Source: Kiritimatiellia bacterium
GTDB taxonomy: Bacteria; Verrucomicrobiota; Kiritimatiellia; RFP12; JAAYLN01
Assembly (NCBI GenBank): GCA_017962605.1
Contig: JAGCUY010000038.1
Coordinates: 350-64,349 of the forward strand
Reading direction: 5' to 3'
Length of the DNA: 64,000 bases
A model generated the notes under the pieces. The model did not search any database and was not told where the DNA came from. It saw only the letters and a list, made by a program, of their open reading frames with translations. The first letter of the stretch is position 1. Every line of letters starts with the position of its first letter. Position numbers and translations under genes: made by a program. Of this stretch, positions 4,503-58,510 are shown in pieces.

Positions 4503-4537
4503 CGGCTGCCGGCTGCCGAATGCAATCGGCGGCCGAG
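4503..4537. repeat. Heptanucleotide array (5 units) in the 5' leader of the LamG gene
   Basis: Hand-phased as CGGCTGC CGGCTGC CGAATGC AATCGGC GGCCGAG. It also forms an imperfect hairpin. Confidence 0.7.
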
Positions 4538-4549
4538 TTGATGCCAACT

Positions 4550-4578
4550 ATGATACCACACTCACATTAGAATAGCCA
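4550..4578 (-). promoter_or_regulatory. Extended -10 promoter of the LamG gene
   Basis: TGTGGTATCAT on the minus strand (plus 4550-4560) with a weak -35 TGGCTA 17 nt upstream. Confidence 0.4.
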
Positions 4579-4607
4579 TGCGCGATGCGCAAAAACTTTC
4601 GTGCGAG

Positions 4608-5750
4608 TTACGCAGGAGCGACGGCGTTGCGCCAGTCGCGCAGGGAGAGGCCGGTGGCCTTCTTGAAGGCGCGGCGGAGGGAGGAGGCGTCCTCGTAGCC
4701 GCACTCGGCCGCGATGGACTCGATGGGCTGCTCGCGGATGAGCAGCAGGGTCTTGGCGTGTTCGACGCGGGCGGCAGCAATCTCCTCGCCGATTGAGCGC
4801 CCCGTGGCCTCGCGGAAGCGGTATTCGGCACCGCGCCGGCTGCCGCCGATCTCGCGGCATATTTCCGCCGGAGTTAGTCCGACGCCAGATGTTTCGCGGA
4901 TGCGCGCGACGGCCCGCCGCACCGCGCCGTCTCGCCGCTTGAACTTGATTGTCGAATTGCGCCGGACAATGTGGGCGGCGCCGAACTTCACGATGCGGGG
5001 CGCGCAGTTGCCTGACATCGCCTCGTCAAGCAATTGCGCGGCGAGGTAGCCCGACTGCTCGAAGTCCGGCATGACGCTGGTGAGGGTCGGGGTGGCGTGG
5101 CGGCAGATGAGGGTGTCGTTGTCGATGCCGATGACGGCGATCTCGTCGGGAACCTCTATCTGCTCCATGGCGCAGGCCTGGAGGACGAGGTCGGCGGAAA
5201 TGTCATTGGCGGCGAGGAGTCCACAGGGCGTGGGGAGGGCGCGAAGCCAAGGGCGAATAGATGCGAAGAACGCGGCGATGGAGTCGGGGCCGCCAGGCTC
5301 AAAAGAGGCGAAAGTCCCGCCGGCCTTGGCGGCTTCGGCGGCCATGACCTTTCGACGGCGGTCGGACCAATCGCGGGGGATAATGTTTCCAACGAAGGCG
5401 AAATTGCGGAAACCGAGGGAGATCAGTTCGTGGGCGGCGAGGGCGGCGGTTCCGGAGGAGTCGTGGACGACGGCCATGCTGGGGCGGCGGAAACGCTTTG
5501 GGTTTGCGTCACAATAGACGACAGGGGTGTCGCGGAAATCCGAGGCCCTGAAGCCGGGGGTGTCCATGACGGAGCGCTCCACGATGCAGCCGTCGGGGCG
5601 CCAGAAAGCTATGGCTTTGGCGACGGGGAGGGCGGTGAGGCCGTGTTCAATCACCTGGACGCGCCATCCCGCAGAGGCGGCATAGCGGTAGATGCCGGCA
5701 AGGCGCGTCCGCCAGAAACGCCATGGATATTGGAAATAGACGATGTTCAC
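4608..5750 (-). CDS. XylR-like regulator (periplasmic-binding-protein-like sugar-binding domain + AraC HTH)
   Basis: 380 aa. The N-terminal two-thirds resemble a LacI/PBP sugar-binding fold. The C-terminus ...IESIAAECGYEDASSLRRAFKKATGLSLRDWR is an AraC-type HTH. The start codon at 5750 is GTG. Confidence 0.8.
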   Translation of the reverse strand: MNIVYFQYPWRFWRTRLAGIYRYAASAGWRVQVIEHGLTALPVAKAIAFWRPDGCIVERSVMDTPGFRASDFRDTPVVYCDANPKRFRRPSMAVVHDSSGTAALAAHELISLGFRNFAFVGNIIPRDWSDRRRKVMAAEAAKAGGTFASFEPGGPDSIAAFFASIRPWLRALPTPCGLLAANDISADLVLQACAMEQIEVPDEIAVIGIDNDTLICRHATPTLTSVMPDFEQSGYLAAQLLDEAMSGNCAPRIVKFGAAHIVRRNSTIKFKRRDGAVRRAVARIRETSGVGLTPAEICREIGGSRRGAEYRFREATGRSIGEEIAAARVEHAKTLLLIREQPIESIAAECGYEDASSLRRAFKKATGLSLRDWRNAVAPA

Positions 5751-5790
5751 TGATTCCCATTTTACACCATGGGGAAAGCTACCGCAAGGA

Positions 5791-5834
5791 GGGGCGGGGA
5801 AAGGGGCTAGGGGCTAGGGACTAGGGGCTAGGGG
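5791..5834 (+). repeat. G-rich heptad array (GGGGCTA family) with G-quadruplex potential
   Basis: GGGG C GGGG AAA then GGGGCTA GGGGCTA GGGACTA GGGGCTA GGGG. There are seven G3-4 tracts with 1-4-nt loops on the plus strand, in the divergent region between the XylR-like gene and the ACT gene. Confidence 0.8.
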
Positions 5835-5844
5835 AGAAGGAGCG

Positions 5845-5978
5845 CGACATTCGACAACCGACAGCCGACGACCAAGACGACTAGCGACAAACGACAAACG
5901 CGACTTGAGAGACATCCCGGCTCCCGAATCCCGCTACCGGATGTCTTCCCGCGTGTCGCTTGTCGCATGTCGCTTGTC
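5845..5978. repeat. Nested imperfect palindrome built from CGACANN / NTGTCGC heptads
   Basis: The left arm is CGACATT CGACAAC CGACAGC CGACGAC ... ACAAACG ACAAACG CGAC (5845-5904). The inner hairpin is AGACATCCCGG / CCGGATGTCT (5910-5946). The right arm is GTGTCGC TTGTCGC ATGTCGC TTGTC (5953-5978). Confidence 0.7.
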
Positions 5979-6039
5979 ATAATGAATCACGGCTACCGGC
6001 GCGCGACATTATTATTGATCCAACGATTGGGCATTAGGC

Positions 6040-6068
6040 TTGACGGAAGCGGCGCAATTTGGGAGAAT
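6040..6068 (+). promoter_or_regulatory. Candidate promoter of the ACT-domain gene
   Basis: -35 TTGACG (6040-6045), a 17-nt spacer and -10 GAGAAT (6063-6068). The start codon is 47 nt downstream. Confidence 0.4.
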
Positions 6069-6114
6069 TGTCATCAGGAAATCCAAACCAAGCCGCAAAA
6101 GCAAGGAGACCGCT

Positions 6115-6549
6115 ATGACCATCAAGCAAATATCGCTGTTCCTGGAGAACAAGCCCGGACATCTCGCCACGATATGCCGGACGCTCGCCGACGCCAAGAT
6201 CAACATCGTCACCCTCTCGCTTGCCGACACACAGCAGTTCGGCATCGTGCGGCTGATCGTGGATGACTGCGACAAGGCCTGCGCCGCCCTCAAGGCCGCC
6301 GGGATGGTCGTCAACGTCCGCGACGTCCTCGCCGTTGGCGTCCGCGACGAACCTGGCGGCATGACCAATCTCCTCGCCATCATCGAGAAGGCCGGCGTGA
6401 ACATCGAATACATGTATGCCTTTGCGGCGCATGTCGGCAAGGAGGCTATCCTGGTCTTCCGATTTGACGACGCCGAAAAGGCCGACGCCGCACTCAAGGC
6501 CGCCGGCGTGCCCGTCCTCGCGCCAGCCGACGTGCTGAATCTGCACTAG
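6115..6549 (+). CDS. ACT-domain (small-ligand-binding) protein, two ACT repeats
   Basis: ATG 6115 is preceded by AAGGAGA. MTIKQISLFLENKPGHLATICRTLADAKINIVTLS... and a second ...VRDEPGGMTNLLAIIEKAGVNIEYMYAF... match tandem ACT folds. Confidence 0.75.
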   Translation: MTIKQISLFLENKPGHLATICRTLADAKINIVTLSLADTQQFGIVRLIVDDCDKACAALKAAGMVVNVRDVLAVGVRDEPGGMTNLLAIIEKAGVNIEYMYAFAAHVGKEAILVFRFDDAEKADAALKAAGVPVLAPADVLNLH

Positions 6550-7784
6550 CGGCCGCCATCCGGCGTCCACGGCGACAGGGGCACCACGCGGTGCTCCGTG
6601 CATGACACGCCCTCCATCGAGGGCGGAATTCCCTTTTCCCGCCAGCGGCGCAGCGCCTCAAGCGGCCTGCGAATCTCCTGAATCCCCTTGCCGCCGAAGT
6701 GCTCGCGCCCAGGCAGGAGAAATAGCTGGCAGAAACCCAGCGCCGCCTCAGGGCCGCCCAAGCGCGTGGCAAGACGGCTGTAGTAGTCAAGAGTGGCGCC
6801 GCAGGGAACGCATGAGTCCTGCGTTCCGGCATAGACGACCATCTTCCCTCCCCTGTCGCGGAAGGCGTCGAGATTCTCATCCTCGGCATCCAGCTCAGGC
6901 GCAAGGGCTGCGAAATAGCGGTCGTAGTCCGGGCCGAAGTCCAGGGCGGCGTAGTCCACATCCGGCCCGAAGGCCCAGTTGAAGAGGTAGAGGTTTGAGC
7001 GGGCGAGGTCGAAGCGCGCGGCCGGCGGGATGCCGTCGAAGATTTTTGCGCCTGTGACTGCGTGGCGAGGGCCTCTGAACAGTTCCTCCAGCGCGGCCAG
7101 ATGTTCGCAGCCAAGCGACGAATCGCGGCGCGCCGCGATGGCGATTGCATCGGCGATGGTCGTATCGTCCCAGCGCGGCGCGGACACGAAGCGGCCGACA
7201 GCGCCGGGGAATTTCTCACGCGGCGCGAAGGCATCCAAGGAGGCGGCGCGGATCACAGCCAACTGCTCCTTGGAGAAAAGCGGCGAACCATCCTGGCGGA
7301 GCGTCCGCTGCCAGTTCCAGAGGAAGTAGGCGTGGAGACGTGTCCGGCAGTGCGCTGGGACGCCGGCGAGGATGCCGTCGTAGTCCTCGGGATAGCGCTG
7401 CGCCTCGGAGAATGCCTGCTGGCCGCCGGTGGATGCGCCGACGAAATAGGAGAACTCCGGAGAGCGCCCGTATTTGGCCGAGACGCACTCCTTGGCGGCC
7501 AACGTCATCACATGGGTGGCGCGGTGGCCGAAGTCGCGGAGGACGTCCTGGTTCCGCCATCCGGCGAGGCGGGTGTCAGGTGCGGTGCCGAGGTCGGTCA
7601 TCGCCGCGGCGTAGCCCTGGCGGGCGTACGGAAGCAGGGCGTCGTCGCGGAGGACGCCTCCCGCGCCGCCGCTCCCTACGCCGACGAAGCGCCCGTTCCA
7701 TGCGGACGGCAACATGAGAAGGACGCCGACGCCGGACTGCGGCGAGGTTTCGACGCGGAATGAAATTCTCTCAATTGCGTCCAT
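6546..7784 (-). CDS. Tannase / feruloyl-esterase-family alpha/beta hydrolase
   Basis: ...FVGASTGGQQAFSEAQRYPEDYDGILAGVPA... carries the G-x-S-x-G nucleophile elbow in the context typical of this family. ATG is at 7784 (the track start 7790 is TTG). No signal peptide is seen. The gene overlaps the mfd stop by 14 nt. Confidence 0.7.
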   Translation of the reverse strand: MDAIERISFRVETSPQSGVGVLLMLPSAWNGRFVGVGSGGAGGVLRDDALLPYARQGYAAAMTDLGTAPDTRLAGWRNQDVLRDFGHRATHVMTLAAKECVSAKYGRSPEFSYFVGASTGGQQAFSEAQRYPEDYDGILAGVPAHCRTRLHAYFLWNWQRTLRQDGSPLFSKEQLAVIRAASLDAFAPREKFPGAVGRFVSAPRWDDTTIADAIAIAARRDSSLGCEHLAALEELFRGPRHAVTGAKIFDGIPPAARFDLARSNLYLFNWAFGPDVDYAALDFGPDYDRYFAALAPELDAEDENLDAFRDRGGKMVVYAGTQDSCVPCGATLDYYSRLATRLGGPEAALGFCQLFLLPGREHFGGKGIQEIRRPLEALRRWREKGIPPSMEGVSCTEHRVVPLSPWTPDGGR

Positions 7785-17867: not shown

Positions 17868-20800
17868 CTACCTCATCATCAGCACGAAGGGGTTGACCTT
17901 GCGCCAGGTGACGCGCACCATGGCGGGGCTTGTCGCGGCGTCGTAGGTGTAGGAAAGCGACTCGACGACCTGCGCGTTCGACCACTGCGTTCCATCCCAC
18001 TCCTCCAGCTTGTAGCCATTAGGGGCGTCGTTGCCCGCTTCAACAGAGAAGGTGTAGGTGCCCTCGACGGCGTATGCGCCGGGGGCGGGGGTGGCGGTGA
18101 CGTCGAGGTCGTCGCCAACGGCCACCACGACGTTCGTGAAGGCCAGTTCGCCGAAGTATCGGGCGCTATCGACCTGGCGGTTGCGGACAAGCTCCTCGTT
18201 CGCGAGCGGGCGGTCGTAATAGCGGTAGGACTTCACGGTGCCGGTGAACGCCTGCGCTCCGTTATTGCCGCCGGCGCCGAGATAGGTCACGGCGACGGTT
18301 GTGGGTTCGAGGCCGAATCCGGACGTGGGGAGTCGCGAGGGGTTCCTCCAGCGCGTCGTTGTCGCGGGCGGAATCTCGGTGCCGTAGAACGCGGCCATGT
18401 AGCCGTCGCCCATGATGCCGGTCGCGTAGGTGAGATTGGCACCGAGATCGAGGCACGGGTCGCAGCGGGAGTCCGCAGTGGTGCCGGAGAACCCATGCGC
18501 GGCGAGGTCGACCCAAGAGTTCTTGTTGTTGCTGACGAACGAGAACGAGCCCGCCTTGTTCCAGGCGCCGGAGGCCATGAACACGTAGCCGCGCGGGGTG
18601 TCTCCGTTGTCGAGAGAGCCGCCGTTGTTCAGAGAATTGCCAATGCCCTCAACGAGCGTCTGCTGCGTCGATTTCGGCGAGACGACGAACGCTACGTAAT
18701 TGCTGAAAAACGATCTGTTGGCGAACGTAAAGCCGTTGTCCGTCCAAGTGCTGTCGCCGAGCCACGTGCTGGCACCGCCTTTTTTGATAAAGGACATGTC
18801 CCAGCCGCCAAACGGCGCGGAGTTTGCCCACGCCTTGGAGAGGCACGAGAAGCGATTGGTGACGTCGGGCAGCTCCGCCCCGATGTTCTTGATGCCGTCG
18901 TAGTTCAGGACAAGGCCGCCCGCGACGTAGTCCGTGATGTCGTAGTCTGCGGCTGTGAAGAGGGCGCCGGCCGCCTTCCACTGCCACGTAAGGCGAACCT
19001 TGGCGGGAGAGGTGGCAACGACATACTCGAAGGAGAGGACGCCGTCGTGCAAAACCGGCGAGTCCCAGCAACCTTCGGAGGCGTTCCACGCCTCCAGCGT
19101 GTAGCCGGTGCAGGCGAACTCGATGCCGCGCGCGTCGGTGCGGGTGGCTGGGGCGGTGAAGGTGTAGGTGCCGGAAATCTCGTAGGGTCCGATCTTCTCG
19201 TTGCCGTCCATGCCGAGACGCGATGAAGTCACCAAGACGTTCGTCACGGGCATCACGCCGTGGAATCGGTAGTCGTCAACCATCCGGTTGTGCTCAAGTT
19301 CCGCATCGGTGAGGACGCGGCCGTAGAAGCGGAAACTCTGAAGCGTACCGGTGAACTTGCGCCCCGAATTGTCGACTATGCCACCGATGCCGAAGTCGGT
19401 GGCGTTTTGGACAATCGGCGGTCCGGCCGTAAAGTCGCGGCGTGACGCGAGGAATCCGTTTACCACTGTCTGCTCTGTCGGGACGGATGTTCCCATGAAG
19501 GCCGCGCCGAACGTGTCGGCGAGAACCGCCGTGCAGTAGCGGACGGGAAGGCCGCGGAACTGCCCAGGCTTGGGACGCGTGTTGGAGTCTCCATAGCCGT
19601 GGACGGTCCAGTCGAACCATTCGTTGTAATAACTCGTGTCGAGGTCCCTGCGGAGGGAAAGCGAGCCGGCCTTGTTGAATTCCACACCCATGGCGTAGTA
19701 GATGTATGCCTCGTTGGAGTCGCTGCTTCCGTTGTAGGCTTTCTGGCCAAGACCATTTGCATCCACGGCCACTTGGATCGTCTGGTTCGACGGCAGGGTG
19801 AATGCCGCGCCGGGATGGAAGTAGGACTGGCGCTCAAAATGGTAACCGTCGTCGCGCCACTCGCCAGGGTCGGCACCCTCGGTGTTGATGACCTGGAGCG
19901 TCATGTCCCAGCCGCCGGCAGGGGCGAGGTTCTTCCATGCGGTCATGTTACTACTATGCGGCTGGTCGGCGCCGAGGTTGCGGATGCCGTCGTAGTGGAG
20001 GAGAAGGCCGTCCTGCACATAGTCGGCGGTCGTGTAGCGCGTCACGATGCCGTCGCCGGCCGTCCACTGCCAGGTGATGCGAACCCGCGACGTTTCCGTC
20101 ACGGCGCAGGACAGGGAGCCGCTGTGGTCTTCCGGGGCGCCCCAGTCGCCGGTGGCATCGTCCCATGCTTCGAGCGTGTAGCCCGTGCAGGTGTAGGCAC
20201 GTCCATCAACCGTCTTCGAAGCAGGGGTGGAGAAGGTATAGCCGCTGGCATCGACCGCATAGGCACCGGCCTTCTCGTTGCCCGAAACGTTGGCAACCGC
20301 CGAGGCGATCACCGCATTCGTCACGGGAATTGCGGAAACAAGCTTGCCGAAGAAACGGGCGTCGTCAACGGCGCGGTTCCAGATGAGTTCATCGGTGGAG
20401 AGAACTTTGTTTGAATAAAGGCGAAAGCTCTTGATAGAGCCATTTAACGAATCAGAACCATTTGGTTGCCCACCAATTGCCCAGCTCCCCATAGTACGAG
20501 AAGGAAAGACAACATCCGTCTTGGTTGGATAACGCCCCGGCGTTGAAGTCGGTTCTTCAGTACCCGAAAAGGCCGCCGTGTAAGTTTCGTTGGCCAAAGC
20601 CGTAAGATACGAGAATTCAGTGCCGTTCCATTTGGGGCGGTCCGTCGTATATGCATGCGTGTTGTACCAAATCTGCTTTGTATTTTTATCACGGATTGAT
20701 ACAGACCATGTTTGCCAGTATGTGTTGTCGCTCCCCACCTGCCCTGGGAACCACACGTATCCAAGAGAACTTATATTAGCACACGTGGCATCCATCAGCA

Positions 20801-21143: not shown

Positions 21144-21189
21144 GGTGTTGATCCTGGTTAAGTTTATTGTTGTCGGCATGGCCCGCAGG

Positions 21190-43268: not shown

Positions 43269-43297
43269 GGCAAAAACTCCTATACTATTTGCGAATA

Positions 43298-43326
43298 ATT
43301 ATATCATGAAAAGGGTGATTTGGCGA
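43298..43326 (-). promoter_or_regulatory. Candidate promoter of ATPase copy 1
   Basis: -10 TATAAT (plus 43298-43303), a 17-nt spacer and -35 TCGCCA (43321-43326). The RBS TAGGAG lies before ATG 43268. Confidence 0.4.
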
Positions 43327-43329
43327 CCA

Positions 43330-43427: not shown

Positions 43428-43816
43428 TGGAGAGACAACGAACCCTTGCATTTGGTGTAAGAAAGCGATTGTTGGAAACATGTTTTTGGTGTATATCCGC
43501 CTAGCGTGGACTACTTCGGTTCTTCCAAGTTTTTTGTGGAACGTGAATCTACATTGTTCACAAATATCAATGCCATTGTTTCAGCCGCAAAGGACGCAGA
43601 GTCCACAAAGGCATTTCGCCCTCGACTGCGGAAGCATTCCCAGTAGGCGCTACCGCGCCGAACATTGGAAACTGCCGGGGATGCGCGGAACGCATTTCGC
43701 GGCGAAACTGTCGCCACGCTGAAGCGAGCTTCGCGCGTCGCCAGCCCTGCCGCACGGCCTGTGGCCGCCCCCGGCAGATTGGGAAGGCCGCCTTGCGGCA
43801 TGGGAAAGCCAGGAAA

Positions 43817-43872
43817 GTCAAAGGTCGAAGGGCGAAGGTCGAAGGGCGAAGGGCGAAGGGCAAAGGTCGGGA
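43817..43872. repeat. GNCGAAG heptad array, 8 units
   Basis: GTCAAAG GTCGAAG GGCGAAG GTCGAAG GGCGAAG GGCGAAG GGCAAAG GTCGGGA. Confidence 0.9.
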
Positions 43873-43958
43873 GGGACGCGCTTTGTCGCGTCCGGTGAGA
43901 TTTGGGAGGGACGCGCTTTGTCGCGTCCGCAGTGGCCCGGACGAAGCCGGGCCCTCCC
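43869..43958. repeat. REP-like pair of 26-nt hairpin repeats plus a third hairpin
   Basis: GGGAGGGACGCGCTTTGTCGCGTCCG occurs at 43869-43894 and 43904-43929 (stem GGACGCG/CGCGTCC). It is followed by GGCCCGG-ACGAAG-CCGGGCC, and by CCCTCCC complementary to the second GGGAGGG. Confidence 0.8.
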
Positions 43959-44010
43959 TTCCAAGACAGGAAATAGCAAACGATCAAAACGGTCAAAGTA
44001 ACAATGCATT

Positions 44011-44100
44011 TTAAATTGTCTGTCCCTTTATGCGGTCACATGCGAGCCAGCTGGCCCAGGCAGCGAAGGAGACGATGAGGACTTTTTGAGCGCGAGAATC
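44011..44100 (-). pseudogene. Possible 3' remnant of a paralogue of the YhhN/DUF998-like membrane protein
   Basis: The minus-frame translation ...TSISTTLFDSRAQKVLIVSFAAWASWLACD.. aligns without gaps to the C-terminus ...KSIPFSPYVPTSQKTLIVSFAIWAGTLAWRH of 40685-41803. I counted about two-thirds nucleotide identity over 51 nt, with many third-position differences. No upstream part remains. Confidence 0.3.
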
Positions 44101-44179
44101 GAACAATGTTGTGGAAATGGACGTCCACGTTTTCCGAGCCGTGCGTGATGCCGCATAACTCTGCCGCGTGGATCGCGCT

Positions 44180-46042
44180 TCATTCGCCAGCGGCAAGCCT
44201 AAGTATTTTGCCACGCAGTTCCGCATCAGTTTTGGGATTTTCAGAAAGAACAAGGTTTCTGTCCTCCTCAAGGCGGACCATTATGGAACTGGCAATCTCT
44301 CGCACATCTCCAATAGGCGTATTGTCCGAGCGCTTTTCTAATCGTGCGACGAGTCGCCACAGGCGCAGGCAATCGAACGACAATCTGGTCATCCGCACAT
44401 TGAAGGAAAGCGCAGGATCACCAGCCACGGCTTCTTCCGCCCTGCGCCATAGTTCAACGCCGAGGTCGATGGCGTCGTCAGTGATTGCGGTGCTTTCGGG
44501 ACCAAGGTAACTGGTGAGCGGGTGTTTGCCAGATGCGGAGTGTTTCAGCTGCAACTGGTGCGTCTCCTCGAACCATTCGCGCACGAACGGCGCCGCAGGG
44601 CCGTAGAAGCCGACGAAGAAGTCATCAAGAAGCGGCTTGAGCGGCTGAGCGGGGTTCCACATAAGCTTCGCGGTTATCCAGGTCTTGAGTTCGGCAAAGT
44701 CGGCGTGGCTACCCCTGTTGTCGCCCTGGGAAAAGAGATAGCGGACGTTGTTGTCGTGGAAGAAGCGGATGTTTTCGGCAAGGGCGTAAACGTTAGGGTA
44801 GGGGATGGTGTAATTTGCGTAGTTGACTGTGTAGTCCCAAATGAAAATGCGGTCATTTTGAAGACTCCACTCTTTTAAATCGCGCCGGAAGTCCACACAC
44901 CCTCTCCATTCGCTTTCCGCAATCGGGAGCGCGAAGTCGCATCCGAGGGTGCATATGCATACAATGACGTTGCGGCGAAGGCGCGTCTTGGCCGGCGGCT
45001 TGCGCGACCACATGTAGGCGAGCGTCTCAACAACGGCGTCCGGGAATTCCTTCTCAACATCCTCAGCAACGGCGTTGACGAATCGGAAAAGCGTTCCAGC
45101 CTGCGAGTCCTCCTCCTTGTTCACGGCACTGCAGTCTGGGCACTGGCAGACGTTGCCGTGGTCTTGCTGCGATACGCCGTAGAACCTGGCGCCGGGGTCT
45201 TGGCGGATACGCGCAAGGACGTTGGATGTCACGATGCGCAGCACATCGGGGTTCGTGAGGCATGGTTGCCAGCTGGTGCCGCGCGGCGGGCCGTTGGTGG
45301 AGCGTTTCCCGTCAAGCATGCAGTAGTATTCGGGATGTTCCGCGAAGTATTCGCCGGGAGGGATTAGTTCACCGAAGGTGTGCGCTATCGCAAGTCCTTT
45401 TCCAAAGCGCCAGTCATCGCCGCCATATTTTGCGGCGATGGTGCCCCACTTGTGGCCATTGGCGCGGAGGCGCGCCTCGAACTCCGGGTGACGGCGCACA
45501 TCGTACCAGAAGGGCTCGCGCATCTCAAAGGCCGGAACCTGCGATTCGTCGAAGCCATTCGGCAGGGCAATGCGGTCGAGGCGTGGAATCCGCGAATGCC
45601 ACGAAGAATACCAGCGGCACCCCGCGAAGCGCTCCAGCACCTCATAGACGCCATAGAGGACGCCGCGCTCGCCGCCGCCCTCGATGAGGAGGCGGTCGCC
45701 GGAGACGGCGATGCGGAAGGCGTCCGCGTTAAGCGGTTGAGCGCCAATCCCCGTTCCCCGTTCCCCGTTTCCTGTTCCCCTCGTCGCCAGCACCACGGCC
45801 TTGCCCGTGGTGCTGGCGACGACCGGCAACTCAACGCCCGTCGTCTCGCAGACGAAGCGCCGCAGCTCCTGCGCGGCGTATTGGACGCACTCGCCGGCAT
45901 CCCCGGCCACGACGATGGCGCATTCGGCGGGCTTGCCGCGTTCGGCCAGGATGAACTCGTCGGCGAAAGATGGCGCTGCCACTAGCTCCGCGAGGACTGA
46001 AATTGAGATGCCAACGGCGAAGGCGCAGAATGATTTTCCCAT
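44180..46042 (-). CDS. DUF4838-domain protein (GH20/GH67-N-like glycan-processing family), secreted
   Basis: The signal peptide is MGKSFCAFAVGISISVLAELVAAPSFA. ...RGVLYGVYEVLERFAGCRWYSSW... is the hallmark N-terminal block of DUF4838 proteins (from memory). Confidence 0.8.
   Translation of the reverse strand: MGKSFCAFAVGISISVLAELVAAPSFADEFILAERGKPAECAIVVAGDAGECVQYAAQELRRFVCETTGVELPVVASTTGKAVVLATRGTGNGERGTGIGAQPLNADAFRIAVSGDRLLIEGGGERGVLYGVYEVLERFAGCRWYSSWHSRIPRLDRIALPNGFDESQVPAFEMREPFWYDVRRHPEFEARLRANGHKWGTIAAKYGGDDWRFGKGLAIAHTFGELIPPGEYFAEHPEYYCMLDGKRSTNGPPRGTSWQPCLTNPDVLRIVTSNVLARIRQDPGARFYGVSQQDHGNVCQCPDCSAVNKEEDSQAGTLFRFVNAVAEDVEKEFPDAVVETLAYMWSRKPPAKTRLRRNVIVCICTLGCDFALPIAESEWRGCVDFRRDLKEWSLQNDRIFIWDYTVNYANYTIPYPNVYALAENIRFFHDNNVRYLFSQGDNRGSHADFAELKTWITAKLMWNPAQPLKPLLDDFFVGFYGPAAPFVREWFEETHQLQLKHSASGKHPLTSYLGPESTAITDDAIDLGVELWRRAEEAVAGDPALSFNVRMTRLSFDCLRLWRLVARLEKRSDNTPIGDVREIASSIMVRLEEDRNLVLSENPKTDAELRGKILRLAAGE
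45744..45780 (-). repeat. GGGGAAC-type heptad array inside the DUF4838 CDS
   Basis: On the plus strand: CCAATCC CCGTTCC CCGTTCC CCGTTTC CTGTTCC CC. The coding strand encodes RGTGNGERGTGIG and shares GGGGAACGGGGAACGGGGA with 27531-27586 in the same reading frame. Confidence 0.85.
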
Positions 46043-48283: not shown

Positions 48284-48356
48284 ACACTTCCGCAAAAACC
48301 ACCATATTAGCCTACATAATTGAGGCTAGGATGCCACGCTTAATGCCTTGCCCAGA

Positions 48357-48450
48357 GACATTCGACATCCGGCATCCGACATCCCGGACGACAACCGACC
48401 ATCGAAAAGTCGAATGTCGGGGCGGGTGTCGGTTGTCGGCCGTCGGATGT
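48357..48450. repeat. Nested imperfect palindrome of GACATCC / CGGNTGT heptads (same word family as 5845-5978)
   Basis: The left side is GACATTC GACATCC GGCATCC GACATCC then GGACGACAACCGAC. The right side is GTCGGTTGTCGGCC then GTCGGATG, phased as CGGGTGT CGGTTGT CGGCCGT CGGATGT. It lies between the stop of ATPase copy 2 and the next promoter. Confidence 0.8.
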
Positions 48451-48477
48451 TCCGAAACCTTGATGCGACGGGCCGTT

Positions 48478-49893
48478 TCAGGCATCGGCGAAGAGGTCGT
48501 CGAGCGTCACCTCGGACTGGATGTCGTTCCAGTATGCGTTGCGGACAAGGCCATGCGTGGTGACCATCGTCACGTGAATGGACTTGCCGGGGCCGACCAT
48601 CTTTGAAAAAGCCTCGGCACGGTTCGCAATCTTGCAGTCCTCCTCGGCGTCAATGGCGTATTCGCCCCTTGACCATTTCATCTCGCACATGTTCACTATG
48701 CCGTCCGCCCTTGCAAGCAGCAGGTCGATCTGCGCCCCGCGCAACTCGCGCGACGCTGTGCGTTTCCACGAATAGACATCGGTGTGGACACCCGATATCC
48801 CAAGCGCCTTCTTTATCTGCGGGACATGCTCAAGGCAGAGCCGCTCGAACGCGAAGCCACGCCATTCGTTCTTCTCGCCCTGACCTACCGATTCCGTCCA
48901 GTAATCCCCGTCCCGCGAATGGTTCCCTCTGACAAACCGCAGCCAGAAAAGCGAAAAGTTGTCGGTCAGCTGGTAGAGGCCACCATTGACGCCGCCGGCC
49001 GGCAGATAGTGGCGGATGAGCCCGGATTCCTCCAAGTCGGCCAGCTGGAGCGTGAGGTTCCCGCTGCTTTGCGCGCCTAGCGCCTCCACGAGTTCGTCGC
49101 GGCCCAATCCATCCCGCCTCGCACCCAACGCGGCGACAATCTTCTCGTATGGCCCCGGATTCGAATAGAGCGACGCATAGAGCTCCTCGAACTCGTTGCG
49201 CAGCCCGTCGCCTTTCCCGAAGAAAAGCCCGTCGAAATTCTGGCCGGGGCTTTTCCCTTTTTCAAGAAGGCTCCAGTAGTATGCGACTCCCCCAAGGGCC
49301 ATGTAGCACTCGGCGATGTGCGTCCGCCCGTATCCAAGTCCCAGTTCCTTCGCGTATGCCTCGCATTCCGCAAGCGTGAAAGGCTGGAGTTTTATTTGCG
49401 TCCTGATCCGGTTGTAGAGTCCGCCGGCGTTTCGGTTGAGTTTCTTGACGATCCACGATGTCGCCGAGCCGCACGCGATAAGCAGGATGTCCTTGCGGCC
49501 GCTTGCCCACTCGTTCCAAAAGCTTTCGAGAGCCGTCAGGAACCCGGAACCATGCGTGTCCATCCATGGCATCTCGTCAATGAACACGGCCTTTTTCCCT
49601 TCCGGCTCCGACTCCAGGAACATTTCAAGTTCATTGAACGCCTGAAGCCATGAGGTCAGCTTTGGACATTTCTCCCAGCCGTGCCTGATGAGGGCGAAGC
49701 GGAACTTGTCGAGCTGTTCTCGCTTAACGCCCTTCTTGACACCGGCCACATGGAACGCGAACTTGTAGCCGAACACTTCGTTCACCAGAAACGTCTTCCC
49801 TATACGGCGCCTGCCATATATTGAGACGAACTCCGAATACGGGGATTCCCAAGCAGCCCTCAACCGCCTGGTCTCTTCTTTTCTGCCAATCAT
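48478..49893 (-). CDS. AAA ATPase - wHTH - PD-(D/E)xK nuclease-like protein (DUF234 type), copy 2
   Basis: The start is ATG 49893 (RBS AGGAGG); the upstream part of track ORF ..50046 reads through repeats. Walker A is IYGRRRIGKTFLV and Walker B is AVFIDEMPWM. The wHTH-like segment is LGRDELVEALGAQSSGNLTLQLADLEESGLIRHY. The nuclease signature is GAQIDLLLARADGIVNMCEMKWS. Confidence 0.8.
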   Translation of the reverse strand: MIGRKEETRRLRAAWESPYSEFVSIYGRRRIGKTFLVNEVFGYKFAFHVAGVKKGVKREQLDKFRFALIRHGWEKCPKLTSWLQAFNELEMFLESEPEGKKAVFIDEMPWMDTHGSGFLTALESFWNEWASGRKDILLIACGSATSWIVKKLNRNAGGLYNRIRTQIKLQPFTLAECEAYAKELGLGYGRTHIAECYMALGGVAYYWSLLEKGKSPGQNFDGLFFGKGDGLRNEFEELYASLYSNPGPYEKIVAALGARRDGLGRDELVEALGAQSSGNLTLQLADLEESGLIRHYLPAGGVNGGLYQLTDNFSLFWLRFVRGNHSRDGDYWTESVGQGEKNEWRGFAFERLCLEHVPQIKKALGISGVHTDVYSWKRTASRELRGAQIDLLLARADGIVNMCEMKWSRGEYAIDAEEDCKIANRAEAFSKMVGPGKSIHVTMVTTHGLVRNAYWNDIQSEVTLDDLFADA

Positions 49894-49928
49894 CCAGTCT
49901 TGCCTCCTTGCCGAAAATATATGGAAAC

Positions 49929-49957
49929 ATAATACCACAGCAAGGCAACTTTGGCAA
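49929..49957 (-). promoter_or_regulatory. Extended -10 promoter of ATPase copy 2
   Basis: TGTGGTATTAT (-10 TATTAT at plus 49929-49934), a 17-nt spacer and -35 TTGCCA (49952-49957). The -35 lies inside the first repeat unit. Confidence 0.5.
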
Positions 49958-50080
49958 GCGAACTCGCAATTTTCGTGAGTTCGTCGGCCAAAGTTCTCGT
50001 TTTTAAGCGACTTTGGCAAGTGAACTCGCGGTTTTTGTGAGTTCATCGTCCAAAGTTCTCGTTTTTAAGCGACTTTGGCC
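49948..50080. repeat. 62-nt tandem direct repeat, 2.15 copies, each a long imperfect hairpin, overlapping the ATPase-2 promoter
   Basis: Unit A is 49948-50009, unit B is 50010-50071 and a partial unit C is 50072-80. In unit A the arms ACTTTGGCAAGCGAACTCGC / GTGAGTTCGTCGGCCAAAGT surround the loop AATTTTC, followed by TCTCGTTTTTAAGCG. Confidence 0.92.
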
Positions 50081-52646: not shown

Positions 52647-52917
52647 GCTCGATGTTCTTGATGCCAAGCTTCATCGAATCATAGTGGACTGTCAAAACGC
52701 CGTCCTTGAAGGTTGCTCCGGCGGCATCGACGCCGTCGATTGCGCCAATCGCGGCGCGGATCTCAGCCTGGACAGCGGCCGTGGTGGCCTGCGGGACGCG
52801 CACCTCGGTCACGCGGATGTCTCGCTGGCGGCAGCCAGCGAGGATCGCTGCGGCGCATAGCGCCACCGCCGCATATTTGAAACCCGAAACCCGAAAACCG
52901 AAAACCGAACTATTCAT
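52582..52917 (-). CDS. Lipoprotein with HMA-like (ferredoxin-fold) domain lacking the CxxC metal motif
   Basis: ATG 52917 follows TAGGAGG. The lipobox is AAILAGC. ...VRVPQATTAAVQAEIRAAIGAIDGVDAAGATFKDGVLTVHYDSMKLGIKNIEHAIKDIGYDA resembles a heavy-metal-associated fold. Confidence 0.6.
   Translation of the reverse strand: MNSSVFGFRVSGFKYAAVALCAAAILAGCRQRDIRVTEVRVPQATTAAVQAEIRAAIGAIDGVDAAGATFKDGVLTVHYDSMKLGIKNIEHAIKDIGYDANDFKGEPKKAQ
52879..52910 (-). repeat. GAAA(C/A)CC heptad array inside the lipoprotein signal-peptide coding region
   Basis: GAAACCC GAAACCC GAAAACC GAAAACC GAAC on the plus strand. It encodes ...SVFGFRVSGFK... directly after the start codon. Confidence 0.85.
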
Positions 52918-54330: not shown

Positions 54331-55001
54331 GGCGAACCCTCTTTGTGCGTGGCATCAGCCCCAAAAGGAGCGAAGCGCCGTTCCGCTTCGCACCAGATGG
54401 CGGCGGCGGTTTCCTCAAGCGGGCGCTCGGTGTCGATGCGCACGATGCGACCGGGGGCGGCGGCAGCGATGGCCTCGAAGCCCTCACGCACGCGGCGGTG
54501 AAAGTCGTCTTCCTCACGCTCGAAGCGGTCCGCGCCCACGCCAGTGCCGTAGCGGGCGTCGAGGCGGCCATTGCGCGTCTCGACGGATGCCTCCAAAAGG
54601 AAGGTCAGGTCTGGCACGAGGCCGCCGGTGGCGAAGTCGATGAGAGCGCGGAGGGAGGCGAGGTCGAAGCCGCGCCCGTAGCCTTGGTAGGCAAGGGTGG
54701 AGTCGGAGAAGCGGTCGCATAGCACCCATGCGCCGCGCTCAATGGCCGGCCTGATCACGTTGCTGATCAACTGGGCCCGGCTGGCGCAGAAGAGCAGCGC
54801 CTCCGCCTCCGGCGTAGGCGGCTCGCCGCCGGCGTCGAACTGCAGCAGGCCGCGTATGGCCTCGCAGAGCGGGGTCCCGCCCGGCTCGCGGGTCAGCACC
54901 GTCTCCACGCCGAGGCCGCGCAGGCGTTCGGCGAGGAGGGCGATGTGGGTGGTCTTGCCGCAGCCTTCGCCGCCTTCAAAAGATATGAAGCAGCCGGTCA
55001 C
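54324..55001 (-). CDS. tmk: dTMP kinase
   Basis: It has the FISFEGGEGCGKTTHIALL P-loop and the DRFSDSTLAYQG motif. The GTG start overlaps the cysS stop (GTGA). Confidence 0.93.
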   Translation of the reverse strand: MTGCFISFEGGEGCGKTTHIALLAERLRGLGVETVLTREPGGTPLCEAIRGLLQFDAGGEPPTPEAEALLFCASRAQLISNVIRPAIERGAWVLCDRFSDSTLAYQGYGRGFDLASLRALIDFATGGLVPDLTFLLEASVETRNGRLDARYGTGVGADRFEREEDDFHRRVREGFEAIAAAAPGRIVRIDTERPLEETAAAIWCEAERRFAPFGADATHKEGSPC

Positions 55002-56455
55002 AGTTTCTGAACCTTCTGCCCCTGCTTGGTGTCCTTGACTTCCCAGCCCATTCCCTTGAGCTGGTCACGGAGCTGGTCGGAGGCGGCCCAGTCCTTGGCG
55101 GTGCGGGCTGCCGCGCGGGCGTCGAGAAGCGACTGGACTTCGGCAGGGATCGCCTCTTCGGCGGCGGGCTTGCCGACGTAGATGAAGGCGAGCACTTCGT
55201 CCATGCGGCGGAGGGCGGCCTCGATTGGCACGGCGATGGCCGCCGCCTCACCGGGCGCAGCGGCGTCAAGGGCGGCGTTGCCGTCGCGGACAAGGCCGAA
55301 GAGCGCCGCCAGGGCATTGGGGGTGTTGAGGTCGTCGGTGAGCGCCGCCGAGAAGGCTTCGAGGGCCTTGGACGCCGCCGTGGCAGGCGCAGTCTGAAGG
55401 ACTGCGCCGACAGGACGGGAGGGCTCGCCAATGGAAACGGCATCGGTTCCCTTCGCCTCGGCGAGGCGCTGGGTAAAGGCGTCGATGCGGGAGAGGGCGG
55501 AGCGGGCCGCCGCCAGCGCGTCGAAGGTGAAGTTCAGTGTCTGGCGGTAGTGGCCGTTCACGAGGACGAAGCGGATCTCGCGGCCTGTCCAGCCACGGTT
55601 AAAGAGGTCGCGGAGGGTGTAGAAGTTGCCGAGAGACTTCGACATCTTCTCGCCGTTGAGGCGCAGGTGGGCGCAGTGCATCCAGAGGCGGGCGAAGGGC
55701 TTGCCGGTGGCGCCTTCCGCCTGCGCCGTCTCGTTGGCGTGGTGCGGGAAGAGGTTGTCGATGCCGCCGGTGTGGATGTCGAAGGTCTCGCCGAGATACT
55801 TCATCGACATCGCCGAGCACTCGATGTGCCAGCCCGGGCGGCCAGGCCCCCAGGGGGAATCCCATACGACGTCGCCGTCGTCGTCTGAGTGCGCTTTCCA
55901 GAGGGCGAAGTCGCCAACGGCGACCTTGTCGTATTCATCCTGCGAGACACGGGCGCCGCCCTGCATGCCTTCGAGGTCGATGTGGGCCGGATGGCCGTAG
56001 CCGGCGAACTTGGCCACGGAGAAATAGACCGAGCCGTCGTCGGACTTGTAGGCAAGGCCCTTGTCGAAGAGCGCATGGATGAGGGCCAGCATCTCGGGAA
56101 TGTGGTCGGTCGCGGCGGGGTATTTGGCGGCCGGAGTGATGCCGAGCGACTTGATGTCCTCGAAGAAGGCGTCGATGTAGGGCTTGGTGTATTGCTTCAG
56201 CGGGATGCCGGCGGCCTTGGCGCCGCGGATGGTCTTGTCATCCACGTCGGTGAGGTTCATGATCTGCGTGACCTTGTAGCCGGCGAAGGCTAGGGCGCGG
56301 TGCAGGATGTCCTCGAAGACGTATGCGCGGAAGTTGCCGATGTGGGCGAAGTTGTAAACGGTGGGGCCGCAGGTGTACATCCTCGCCTCGCCCTCGTGGA
56401 GCGGCTCGAATGGGCGCACTGTGCGCGTTGCGGTGTCGTAGAAGTTCAGTTGCAT
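54998..56455 (-). CDS. cysS: Cysteine--tRNA ligase
   Basis: It has the HIGH-type motif AHIGNFRAY, KMSKS (GEKMSKSLGN) and a C-terminal DALR-like region. 485 aa. Confidence 0.97.
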   Translation of the reverse strand: MQLNFYDTATRTVRPFEPLHEGEARMYTCGPTVYNFAHIGNFRAYVFEDILHRALAFAGYKVTQIMNLTDVDDKTIRGAKAAGIPLKQYTKPYIDAFFEDIKSLGITPAAKYPAATDHIPEMLALIHALFDKGLAYKSDDGSVYFSVAKFAGYGHPAHIDLEGMQGGARVSQDEYDKVAVGDFALWKAHSDDDGDVVWDSPWGPGRPGWHIECSAMSMKYLGETFDIHTGGIDNLFPHHANETAQAEGATGKPFARLWMHCAHLRLNGEKMSKSLGNFYTLRDLFNRGWTGREIRFVLVNGHYRQTLNFTFDALAAARSALSRIDAFTQRLAEAKGTDAVSIGEPSRPVGAVLQTAPATAASKALEAFSAALTDDLNTPNALAALFGLVRDGNAALDAAAPGEAAAIAVPIEAALRRMDEVLAFIYVGKPAAEEAIPAEVQSLLDARAAARTAKDWAASDQLRDQLKGMGWEVKDTKQGQKVQKL

Positions 56456-56466
56456 GGTCGTTTTTC

Positions 56467-58401
56467 CTAGTTTTTCCTAAGGCGTTCGATGAACTCGTGG
56501 CATTCGCCGACGGACTGCCCTTCAATGCAGATGCGGTGCCAGAGTTCGAGGTTGATGAGAATCCAGAGGCGGAAGTTGTGGTCGGCCTTGCCGCCGATAT
56601 GCTCCTCGACGAGGCGGTCGATGGCCTCCTGGCGGAAGAGGCCGAGCTCGACGAAGCGCGACTCGCGGAAGAGGTTCCGCTGGAAGGGCGCGAGGTCGGA
56701 GCGCAGCCACTTCGCAATTGGGAAGCCGAATCCCTGCTTGGGGCGGTCGACGAGATCGGCGCCCATGTAGCGCTTGGCGACGTTGCGGAGGATGTACTTG
56801 AGGCCGCGGCCGGTGCCGCGCAGCTTGATGGAGCAAGGCAGCGAGGCGGCAAACTCGGTGACGCGGTAGTCGATCAGCGGCGGACGCACTTCAATGGAGT
56901 GCGCCATCGACATGCGGTCGGTGATGGCCAGCAGCTGGTCGGGGATGCGCGTCATGAGGTCGGTGTAGAGCATCCGGTCGAGGTATTCGGAGGCCGTGCC
57001 GTCGTCGAAGTATTTCAGGATCTGGCGCACCGAGTCGGTGTCGGCGATGCGGCGCTGGGCGTCGTCGGTGAAGAGGTCGTCCTTCTGCTCCTGGGTGAAG
57101 CGCAGGACGGACATCGAGCGTGCGTAGGCGTCGCCTGGCGTGCGGGCATGGCCGCCGATGTCGTTGAGCCAGCGCAACTTTCCGGCTAGGCTCTTGTAGC
57201 CGAAGGATTCGGGGATGAGGCCGATAAGCGGGGCTGCCACGCCGCGACGCAGGAAGCCGGGAACAAGTCCGTAGAGCCGCGCAAGCTTCTGCCCTGCGAA
57301 GCGGTCGTAGCCGGCGAAGTTCTCGTCGCCGCCGTCGCCGGAGAGGACGACCTTGTCGTATTTGGCGGCAAGCTGCGAGACGAGGTAAACGCCCACGCCG
57401 AAGGGGTCGGCTGGCTCGTCCATGTGGAAAACCATCTCCGGCAGGTTGGCGACGAGGTCGGCCTCCACGGTTTCCGTCTTCCAGTCGAGTCCGTATTGGC
57501 GCGCGATCTTCTCAGCCCACGGCAGTTCGTTGATCTGGTCGTTCACGCCGATGGAGAAGGTGTGGAAGCTCTTGCCGGTTATCTTGGCCGTCATGGCCGT
57601 GATGAGCGAAGAGTCGATGCCGCCGGAGAGGAAGGTGCCAACGGGAACGTCGGATAGCAGGTGGAGCGAGATCGTATCGAGGAGGAGGGACTCGAGCTTG
57701 TCGGTGAGTTCCTTCTCGGTGCCGTCGATTTTGTCGCGGAAGGTGTCGAGGCTCCAGTAGCGGCGCGTGGTGACGGCGCCGTCCTGCCAGATGGCGTAGG
57801 TGGCGGCCGGGAGCTTGCGGACGCCATCGAAGAGCGAGCGGTCGTCTGGGAGGTAGCGCAGCGACATGTAATGCCACAGACCTTCGAGATCGACCTTGCG
57901 CTCAAGCAGGCCCGACGCGAGGACGGACTTCGGCTCGGAGGCGAATGCGAATGATGCGCCGTTCGAGGCGTAGAAGAGGGGCTTCTGGCCGAGGTGGTCG
58001 CGGGCCATGACCAGGCGGCGGCGTGGCGCGTCCCAGATTGCGACGGCGAACATGCCTCGAAGGTCGGCGAAGCAGTTCTCGCCCTTCTCCTCGTAGAGGT
58101 GGAGGATGACCTCGACGTCGGTGGCAGTCTTGAAGGAGTGCCCCCTGCCCTTCAGCTGGTCGCGCAGCGTGGGGCTGTTGTATATCTCCCCGTTGCAGAC
58201 GAGCCACAGGGTGCCTTCCTCGTTGGGGATGGGCTGGTGGCCGCCGGCGAGGTCATTGATGCTCAGGCGGCGCTGCCCAAGGGAAATCGTGGCCTCCGAG
58301 TGGAAGCCCTCGTCATCGGGGCCGCGATAGGCCATGATGTCGGTCATGGCCTTGATGCGGCTCTCGTGATTTTCGCAAATTAGCCCGGCAATCCCGCACA
58401 T
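56467..58401 (-). CDS. asnB: Asparagine synthase (glutamine-hydrolysing), long AsnB-type amidotransferase
   Basis: It has the N-terminal nucleophile MCGIAGLI and the PP-loop FLSGGIDSS. 644 aa. Confidence 0.9.
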   Translation of the reverse strand: MCGIAGLICENHESRIKAMTDIMAYRGPDDEGFHSEATISLGQRRLSINDLAGGHQPIPNEEGTLWLVCNGEIYNSPTLRDQLKGRGHSFKTATDVEVILHLYEEKGENCFADLRGMFAVAIWDAPRRRLVMARDHLGQKPLFYASNGASFAFASEPKSVLASGLLERKVDLEGLWHYMSLRYLPDDRSLFDGVRKLPAATYAIWQDGAVTTRRYWSLDTFRDKIDGTEKELTDKLESLLLDTISLHLLSDVPVGTFLSGGIDSSLITAMTAKITGKSFHTFSIGVNDQINELPWAEKIARQYGLDWKTETVEADLVANLPEMVFHMDEPADPFGVGVYLVSQLAAKYDKVVLSGDGGDENFAGYDRFAGQKLARLYGLVPGFLRRGVAAPLIGLIPESFGYKSLAGKLRWLNDIGGHARTPGDAYARSMSVLRFTQEQKDDLFTDDAQRRIADTDSVRQILKYFDDGTASEYLDRMLYTDLMTRIPDQLLAITDRMSMAHSIEVRPPLIDYRVTEFAASLPCSIKLRGTGRGLKYILRNVAKRYMGADLVDRPKQGFGFPIAKWLRSDLAPFQRNLFRESRFVELGLFRQEAIDRLVEEHIGGKADHNFRLWILINLELWHRICIEGQSVGECHEFIERLRKN

Positions 58402-58406
58402 AGTAT

Positions 58407-58510
58407 CTCAAATTCCAGATCACAAATTTGAAATTACAAATTCCAAATTCTAACTAACTACTAACAACCTACTAGCCACTAACAACTAACAACTAGCGAC
58501 TAACCACTAA
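58407..58510. repeat. Heptanucleotide array, ~15 units in two word blocks
   Basis: CTCAAAT TCCAGAT CACAAAT TTGAAAT TACAAAT TCCAAAT then TCTAACT AACTACT AACAACC TACTAGC CACTAAC AACTAAC AACTAGC GACTAAC CACTAA. It overlaps the epimerase stop codon and ends 6 nt before the asnB start. Confidence 0.9.

Follow-up and report, generated by a model that had tools for sequence, protein, structure and literature searches.

What generates the seven-nucleotide tandem repeats that crowd the spacers of a Kiritimatiellia genome, and do they act on the genes beside them? The question was raised by a stretch of 64,000 nucleotides from a Kiritimatiellia bacterium (GenBank assembly GCA_017962605.1, contig JAGCUY010000038.1, positions 350 to 64,349), hereafter the window, whose own positions are used throughout. 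A sequence-only reading of this DNA had proposed repeats of period 7 with different words at each locus, which was borne out by Tandem Repeats Finder (TRF), a lag-match scan, and a per-locus test; the presence of real heptanucleotide tandem arrays in the window is hence confirmed. With a probability of roughly 0.65, the arrays are slippage-generated heptanucleotide microsatellites that are tolerated as spacer filler and have been filtered from coding DNA, among which hairpin-forming and unstructured sub-classes may affect transcripts. Nearly all genes of the window lie on the minus strand, and the arrays, all of which are minus-strand features, were therefore read on the minus (sense) strand.

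At a low score threshold, TRF returned 19 rows of period 7, seven of period 14, and six of period 21 in the window, where third-order Markov simulations of the window (n=20) gave means of 2.1, 0.3, and 0.05, respectively. The excess over neighbouring periods was assessed on this window and on sister loci. A lag-match scan of lags 2-24, in which at least 26 of 35 bases had to match, identified 13 regions at lag 7, 12 at lag 14, and four at lag 21. No region was found in the window at any other lag except for one at lag 18, and approximately none were found in 30 simulations. The count of 13 at lag 7 against zero at lags 4-6 and 8-13 is the excess over neighbouring periods that characterizes long simple sequence repeats (SSRs).

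Individual loci were evaluated by their lag-7 match fraction. The loci 5803-5834, 5845-5904, 5953-5978, 24404-24494, 27531-27586, 34326-34365, 35831-35880, 43817-43872, 45744-45780, 48357-48450, 52879-52910, and 58407-58510 passed, with fractions of 0.61-0.92 for which only 0-0.075 windows were expected per 64 kb, and they consist of head-to-tail 7-nt units beyond the length expected by chance, as long SSRs do. The sub-array at 48400-48450 was marginal by itself (0.65 expected) and significant jointly with 48357-48384. Eleven of the 12 loci on the original list were thereby upheld. The exception, a CGGCTGC-type locus at 4503-4537 (minus strand), had a fraction of 0.57, for which about 12 windows were expected per 64 kb, and merely 2.3 TRF copies at 4503-4518; it falls within what is probably the 5' leader of the gene 2033-4480. 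A chance or compositional artefact was ruled out by the Markov simulations, and an assembly artefact because independent assemblies of different samples (ENA, NCBI, and Logan) contain the same arrays. An 82-kb metagenome scaffold (ENA ERZ28653423 scaffold_496) also contains the identical window sequence.

Within the arrays, super-periods of 14 or 21 nt were more identical than the 7-nt period in the TRF output. For example, period 14 reached 100% at 24406-24433 and 91% at 43821-43869, and period 21 reached 92% at 35830-35877. Local duplication of blocks of two to three already diverged units has therefore occurred repeatedly.

The arrays were concentrated outside of genes. On a gene map built from open reading frames (ORFs), Pfam hits, and public gene calls, they occupied 525 of the 3,486 intergenic bases (15.1%) and 164 of the 57,225 coding bases (0.29%), which makes non-coding DNA about 50 times richer in them. 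Such a depletion of non-triplet units from coding DNA is likewise typical of long SSRs. Autocorrelation of the intergenic DNA peaked at lag 7 (0.33), lag 14 (0.32), and lag 21 (0.31) over a background of approximately 0.265, while that of coding DNA showed period 3 only. These results agree with the initial description of the arrays as mostly intergenic and situated between same-strand genes, and the proposed contact with stop or start codons was seen at 24366-24493, 34326-34365, 35831-35880, and 58402-58506. The accompanying statement that a period of 7 is incompatible with coding holds as far as the depletion is concerned, but GGGGAAC and GGTTTTC run in frame in three genes. The words found in genes contain a stop codon in no frame, and the total lengths of the in-gene arrays preserve the reading frame. 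In contrast, 6 of 11 intergenic sub-arrays, as read from the sequences, carry TAG or TGA in every unit. Stop-free words in genes together with stop-bearing words in spacers form the pattern expected after a selection filter.

The arrays that reached into genes lay in linkers, loops, or protein ends. An in-frame (GGGGAAC)-type array at 27530-27588, with TRF periods of 7 and 21 and a 21-nt super-period, encodes GNGERGTVNGEQGIGNG within the segment that links the SpoIIE phosphatase domain to the HATPase domain (Pfam limits 352-553 and 600-696) in the product of the gene 27209-29326. A second, in-frame (GGGGAAC)x5 array called by TRF at 45744-45780 encodes RGTGNGERGTG in a loop of the N-terminal domain of a DUF4838 protein (44180-46042). 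The latter is 92% identical over 26 nt to 27563-27588, and both encode peptides of the GNGERGT type. The third, (GGTTTTC/GGGTTTC)x4.4 at 52879-52910 (TRF, 95% matches), supplies codons 3-13 of a small lipoprotein gene with an HMA domain (Pfam) that starts at 52917; the array is part of the signal peptide (MNSSVFGFRVSGFK..LAGC) and is included in the 111-aa gene call. Finally, a (CGGNAGY) array of approximately six units at 34325-34365 (TRF period 7; lag-7 fraction 0.73) spans the stop codon of the gene 34337-35830, giving the protein its last seven to nine residues (..QSAAGSR, then the stop) and filling part of a 66-nt spacer.

Comparisons among strains revealed how the arrays change. Contigs with more than 99.8% identity showed no array differences, whereas differences occurred among sister strains of about 92-97% nucleotide identity, whose flanking genes are 96-99% identical. 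The spacer between the epimerase and AsnB genes is 105 nt long in the window, 133 nt in the sister L171, and 164 nt in the sister L170, where the GTTAGTN units (58452-58510) number about 8, 12.1, and 16.6, respectively, and the adjoining AATTTGN array is constant. In L175 (98% protein identity), the CCCCTAG array at the 35829-35880 site has an equal length with a different unit order, as four identical units take the place of a duplicated 21-nt block. The 24366 hairpin of L178 carries 6 additional nt, a partial unit, in its 3' arm and is retained (dG -41.9). The array at 34326 is present in L175 and L176, while unrelated sequence stands in place of both the array and its spacer in L178, where the protein has 490 aa instead of 497. 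Other arrays were stable: the in-frame array at 27530-27588 is unchanged in L178, and the lipoprotein array at 52879-52910 is of equal length in the window, L170, and L171, which are 5-8% divergent elsewhere. Copy number that varies between strains is a further mark of long SSRs, and these unit-number differences support the role as a slippage substrate that the sequence-only reading had listed among its suggestions. The lack of variation among near-identical strains indicates arrays that change fast at the scale of species divergence rather than hypermutable ones.

Beyond the sister strains, the arrays were largely missing. Among relatives at 77-86% protein identity, L176 excepted, no array was seen in the orthologous spacers, whose lengths are 3-80 nt. 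For example, relatives at 83% identity have a 9-nt spacer without an array at the 24403-24494 site and no array in the epimerase-AsnB spacer, and L177 has no spacer at the 35829-35880 site. As the same spacers of relatives at about 83% protein identity lack them, the arrays are young insertions, by which spacers grew from about 10-80 nt to 100-165 nt. Taken together, these comparisons show that the arrays are young and were made in place, and that their turnover is quicker by unit change than by point substitution, as in microsatellites and variable-number tandem repeats (VNTRs).

A consistent mechanism would begin with slipped-strand mispairing or local unequal exchange during replication or repair, by which the arrays would be generated and remodelled. 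A step of 7 nt would be favoured mechanistically; according to the proposal of Mrazek et al. (2007), as far as it is relayed in later papers, approximately 7 nt is the stretch of DNA held in contact with the polymerase, which would favour slippage by that step (PMC4679880, PMC4692102). Units that can form non-B structures, such as G4N3 words and those with the palindromes CTAG, AATT, CCGG, or TCGA, would be the favoured seeds. Most of the resulting arrays would be neutral or nearly neutral spacer filler, and selection would remove them from coding DNA, where only stop-free and frame-keeping words would survive. Inverted pairs would yield RNA hairpins of 20-45 bp after stop codons, which could be 3' stabilisers, processing sites, or barriers, and C/U-rich unfoldable arrays before starts without a Shine-Dalgarno sequence could serve as open leaders.

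The inverted pairs begin at or just after stop codons and are predicted to fold into long hairpins. Mirrored words had been noticed earlier, and inverted arrays do exist, but the long hairpins that they form had been overlooked. The most stable lies in the 283-nt spacer downstream of the stop codon of the gene 6034-6603. Its 5' arm is a (CGACAAG)x4 array at 5950-5978 (TRF period 7/14, 86-93% matches; lag-7 fraction 0.84), and its 3' arm is a near reverse complement, a (TTGTCGN) array of about eight units at 5845-5904 (TRF rows 5852-5873 and 5877-5900; lag-7 fraction 0.62, zero expected). The fold predicted for 5840-5985 (146 nt) has a dG of -68.1 kcal/mol (z -4.9). In the spacer between a Pyr_redox_2 gene (stop at 24494) and an aconitase-family gene (start at 24365), a 13-unit array at 24403-24494 (TRF periods 7, 14, and 21) runs from (GAATCTT)x3 through (AAATTTG)-type units to (AAGATTY)x4, an inverted pair with a stem of about 24 bp that fills the spacer. 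The predicted fold of 24366-24493 has a dG of -38.9 (z -4.6), with a U-run that precedes the stem rather than following it.

The other two pairs had less extreme z-scores. About 27 nt beyond the stop codon of the gene 48478-50046, approximately six (CGACANC) units at 48400-48450 are followed by (GGATGTC)x4 at 48357-48384, the part called by TRF; the pair has a lag-7 fraction of 0.61 over 94 nt (zero expected) and a predicted fold at 48345-48465 with a dG of -53 (z -2.5), and a strong promoter-like site, TTGACA-17-TATTAT, follows downstream (48283-48255). At 58407-58510, two abutting arrays of about eight (GTTAGTN) and then about six (AATTTGN) units (TRF periods 7, 14, and 21) occupy all 105 nt of the epimerase-AsnB spacer, reaching from the stop codon to the start codon, and 58402-58506 is predicted to form two smaller stems (z -2.8). 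The array hairpins were rejected as intrinsic terminators, as no T-run lies downstream and none were called by the terminator scan. An Rfam search of the window returned only a transfer-messenger RNA (tmRNA) at 617-975 and no known RNA family at the arrays.

In contrast to the inverted pairs, the C-rich, G-poor arrays at 5802-5834, 35829-35880, and 43817-43872 are predicted to be unable to fold. The first, (CCCCTAG)x4.7 (TRF, 92% matches; lag-7 fraction 0.92), is C-rich on the sense strand, precedes the AraC-type regulator gene 4608-5750 by about 50 nt, and shares 87% identity with the array at 35840-35878 across 39 nt. The second, (CCCCTAN/TCCCTAN)x7 (TRF periods 7, 14, and 21), abuts the ATG of the gene 34337-35830, where no Shine-Dalgarno sequence is present, and its RNA is predicted to be unstructured (fold z -0.4, array unpaired). 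The third, (CGCCCTT/CGACCTT)x7 (TRF period 7 at 89%, period 14 at 91%; fold z 0.04), lies inside a 911-nt stretch without a convincing gene (43269-44179), where the ORF 43511-43996 has a low-complexity translation and no Pfam hit. A promoter-like TTGCGG-17-TAAAAT was found by eye just downstream of the CCCCTAG array in the spacer 5751-6033; it received no call in the scan and was not relied on.

Several observations weigh against slippage as the whole explanation. Unlinked pairs of loci that share units numbered five against 0.76 expected under a composition-preserving null (P ~4e-4). The words CCCCTAG, GGGGAAC, AAATTTG-type, and TGTCG/CGACA-type each occur at two loci, the TGTCG/CGACA and GGGGAAC families are also found at additional loci and in a second species (as CGACATC in L172), and a further word copy lies within the GH2 gene of a sister strain. 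Such recurrence is not predicted by pure slippage from random seeds. Its source could be either expansion-prone words, with G-runs or short palindromes that can form non-B structures, or word-specific selection or binding. The inverted pairs also fold far better than shuffled controls (z -4.9 and -4.6), and the sense fold is more stable than the antisense fold in three of the four. Stronger sense folds in these predictions would fit selection at the RNA level, which is suggestive, although G+U-rich strands fold better anyway. Additionally, L176, a relative at 86% identity, carries other pyrimidine-rich heptamers (CATCTCT and CGTCACT) upstream of its homologue of the gene 34337-35830, and the close relatives L087, L173, L174, and L177 carry 8-nt as well as 7-nt arrays, which indicates that the period is not fixed across the clade.

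An additional contig (L167, positions 1-120), located about 2.3-2.45 kb past the right end of the window, carries an ATGTCGN array as well as (GGGGAAC)x7 in the intergenic DNA ahead of a GFO_IDH_MocA gene, so that the latter word is not limited to coding DNA.

Recurrence of words would be explained if the arrays were cis-elements for a trans-acting factor, such as S1, Csp, a CsrA-like protein, or a lineage-specific one, that recognizes a 5-nt core in every 7 nt, with unit number tuning translation or transcript fate in operon spacers. This alternative survives best and is nonetheless unlikely. It could account for the word families common to unlinked loci and between species and for the different pyrimidine-rich heptamers at the same site in the 86% relative, but at least eight unrelated words in 64 kb would require many factors, no candidate binding protein was identified, and the arrays are absent at orthologous sites of otherwise syntenic near relatives. 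The orientation of arrays to genes is inseparable from strand, as nearly all genes lie on one strand. Variation within units is concentrated at one or two positions (TNGYTAG and TGTCGNN), as a binding core might leave; however, this is also expected from the re-amplification of a few variant units, and it was rejected as evidence of a core because of too few independent mutation events. Arrays that abut starts without a Shine-Dalgarno sequence have a counterpart in the TAACTGA repeats that immediately precede start codons of this kind in marine Beggiatoaceae, some Cyanobacteria, and Bacteroidetes (PMC4679880). While the genomes with TAACTGA have one dominant word in two to six copies per site, the window has many words, longer arrays, and many arrays after stop codons, and the TAACTGA word was not seen among its arrays.

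The relatives with octamers bring in a related idea. Period-8 arrays were located in L087 (1112-1168, 12690-12797, and 14115-14459), L173 (66-110 and 1543-1638), L174 (11736-11816), and L177 (15027-15091), and the octamers AAACCGTC and AAAYGGTT are common to different genomes at non-orthologous sites; in the window, no period-8 arrays were found. A clade-specific process is conceivable, in which a protein or RNA binds arrays of 7-mers (8-mers in the relatives) or an enzyme generates them, and in which the arrays would form a regulatory layer in operon spacers with the period as the footprint of the factor. If so, hairpins would act as barriers after stops, unstructured C/U stretches as landing pads before starts, and unit number as an evolvable setting. 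We consider this quite improbable.

Lower odds still are given to an action of the G/C-rich subset (CCCCTAG, GGGGAAC, and CGCCCTT) through G-quadruplex or i-motif DNA or RNA, by analogy with proposals for Xanthomonas and Nostoc. With a G-quadruplex (G4) motif defined as at least four G3+ tracts with loops of 1-7 nt (G3+N1-7 x4), the window contains three canonical motifs, two of which are the opposite (plus) strands of the heptamer arrays at 5791-5834 and 35832-35887. These were the only arrays to match the definition; the GGGGAAC coding arrays do not, and most arrays are AT-rich or otherwise unable to form a G4. Quadruplex-type heptamer repeats with inverted pairs and length variation between close species are known as GGGNATC in Xanthomonas and GGGGA(C/T)T in Nostoc, and Rehm et al. 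saw no clear common function for them (PMC4692102). The arrays of the window share with them the intergenic G3-4N3 heptamers (as do the GGGGAAT arrays of the relative L087), some inverted pairs, and length and sequence that vary at conserved positions. In contrast, the G-run type makes up only about one third of the arrays here, and the quadruplex is a sequence motif only.

The hairpin arrays might instead represent a small palindromic element, mobile or dispersed, in whose copies the 7-nt periodicity of the arms is incidental. Repetitive extragenic palindromic (REP) sequences and bacterial interspersed mosaic elements (BIMEs) of enterobacteria are intergenic palindromes of a single conserved family without internal 7-nt periodicity. 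Like these, the window hairpins are imperfect, lie between co-directional genes just past stop codons, and have no T-run, but they lack a common consensus. The hairpins 5840-5985 and 48345-48465, both after stop codons, share 71% identity, mostly in the 3' arm, as well as the units AATGTCG and CGGTTGT (common to 5845-5904 and the arrays at 48357-48450), and another TGTCG array lies just past the window end. However, they have no conserved non-periodic termini or flanks and no visible target-site duplications, their lengths and loops differ, and L172 has the same word (CGACATC) without an inverted partner. The CGACA/TGTCG hairpins, which share only periodic units and no termini of the kind found in REPs or miniature inverted-repeat transposable elements (MITEs), were rejected as a mobile element. 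A comparison across the window loci likewise found no shared flanks or termini among the arrays, which makes a classical mobile element unlikely, and the palindromic element as a whole is very improbable. Least probable of all are phase-variation (contingency) switches, in which a change by a single unit would shift the frame or promoter spacing and toggle surface proteins: an array in codons 3-13 of a lipoprotein gene, a unit that is not a multiple of three, and surface-type proteins nearby would suit them, but that array has an equal length in three strains 5-8% divergent elsewhere, most arrays flank housekeeping genes (AsnB and the aconitase family), and no array occupies the -35/-10 spacing of the promoter-like sites scanned.

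Slippage-generated microsatellites being the preferred reading, the arrays can be placed among known repeats. Heptamer families called short tandemly repeated repetitive (STRR) sequences are known from Calothrix and Nostoc, and they were reportedly described in heterocystous cyanobacteria by Mazel et al. in 1990. The resemblance pointed out by the sequence-only reading stands, as the window also has 7-nt units in several word families, each dispersed over many intergenic loci. In contrast, its words are not those of STRR1-3, the STRR arrays are usually purer, their families are much larger, and the host is not a cyanobacterium, as had been noted. Among GTDB species genomes, SecA is matched best by a Kiritimatiellae metagenome-assembled genome (MAG; 68% identity), ahead of Lentisphaerae and Verrucomicrobia, and NCBI assigns the name Kiritimatiellae or Kiritimatiellia to the AsnB and Pyr_redox homologues with 77-85% identity. 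The gene content (Laminin_G_3, beta-helix surface proteins, DUF4838, and AraC/GntR sugar regulators) is consistent with Kiritimatiellae, and the host is hence a bacterium of the Planctomycetes-Verrucomicrobia-Chlamydiae (PVC) superphylum with 62% G+C.

The view of heptanucleotide repeats as a peculiarity of heterocystous cyanobacteria, and of the present arrays as a separate occurrence, did not hold. Such repeats also occur in Xanthomonas, Beggiatoaceae, and Bacteroidetes and, in the findings of Mrazek et al. (2007) as cited by others, are the most abundant class of long SSRs in most prokaryotic genomes (PMC4679880, PMC4692102). Like those long SSRs, the arrays are tandem 7-nt units in excess over non-triplet periods, mostly intergenic, and patchy in phylogeny, with slippage proposed as their origin. 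They differ in their occurrence in Kiritimatiellae (PVC), in occupying about 15% of intergenic bases, and in that many are degenerate and several form inverted pairs. The window thus represents another lineage with a known feature class, and the literature searched contained no earlier report of tandem or heptamer repeats in Kiritimatiellae or Verrucomicrobia.

The occurrence in other bacteria was consistent with this placement. In approximately 2.3 Mb of other bacteria around SecA and CysS genes, lag 7 was the commonest non-triplet period with 24 arrays, followed by lag 8 with seven, while lags 4, 5, 10, and 11 had at most three. The density there was about 10 arrays per Mb, compared with about 200 per Mb in the window. 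Array-bearing loci were found in Verrucomicrobia subdivision 3, Bacteroidales, and Prevotella, with their own words in each. The nearest SecA relatives among GTDB species genomes (L007-L010, 60-68% identity) have no arrays near SecA, and the array-carrying clade therefore appears to be narrow.

Of note in the present lineage are the density of the arrays, the hairpins of inverted pairs, word families that recur, and the split between 7-nt and 8-nt periods among relatives. The arrays add a PVC lineage far from cyanobacteria to the question, posed since 1990, of the prokaryotic preference for 7 nt and the function of STRR-like repeats. At 15% of spacer DNA, they are dense enough for a population-style study, with sister strains showing gain and loss of units and turnover of words at a site, and they could be used as strain markers (VNTRs) for uncultured Kiritimatiellae. 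For annotation, it matters that arrays create false ORFs (43511-43996), alter protein ends (497 versus 490 aa), and coincide with contig breaks in short-read assemblies. Some short metagenome contigs from this species (L004, L168, and L169) end within heptamer arrays, at about 24420 and about 58470, and the contigs with close homologues of the gene 34337-35830 are just 2-3 kb long. Short-read assembly may fail at the arrays, or the arrays may reflect strain heterogeneity.

Other repeats and variable sequences were also observed in the window. Three tandem paralogous genes of 681, 497, and 623 aa occupy 32225-37800 with array-filled spacers between them, and some of their homologues have a weak Glyco_hydro_42 match. 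The first of the three (32225-34270) contains an in-frame 9/18-nt repeat near its N-terminus (34089-34169, LEHLGS-type peptide), of which L178 has one additional 18-nt unit; repeats in multiples of three thus vary within genes, in contrast to the 7-nt arrays. The 1103-aa protein encoded at 17868-21179, with a weak Laminin_G_3 match, is hypervariable, as it shares 59-71% nucleotide identity with L178 while the flanking genes share 96-98%. Two repeats accompany paralogous ATPase_2 genes: a 62-nt x2.1 tandem repeat with internal hairpins at 49945-50079, at the 5' end of the gene 48478-50046, and a doubled hairpin repeat (GGTTCACCTAATCGG..TAGGTGAACC and an A-run) at 43330-43440, upstream of the gene 41832-43268. 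These may be operators or terminators linked to the gene family.

A 35-nt segment is 97% identical between 31765-31799 (in the plus-strand gene 30420-32210) and 55385-55419 (in the minus-strand gene 54998-56455), where it is read in the same frame (RPVGAVLQTAP) in two unrelated genes, an FAD-dependent oxidoreductase and CysS. It holds the palindrome GGCGCAGTC-N5-GACTGCGCC, and the CysS copy lies in a loop that differs between sister strains (474 aa in L171 versus 485 aa). From its sequence, the segment looks like a small in-frame palindromic insertion. Finally, the tmRNA gene at 617-975 lies on the minus strand and encodes the tag peptide ANNDFAMAA.

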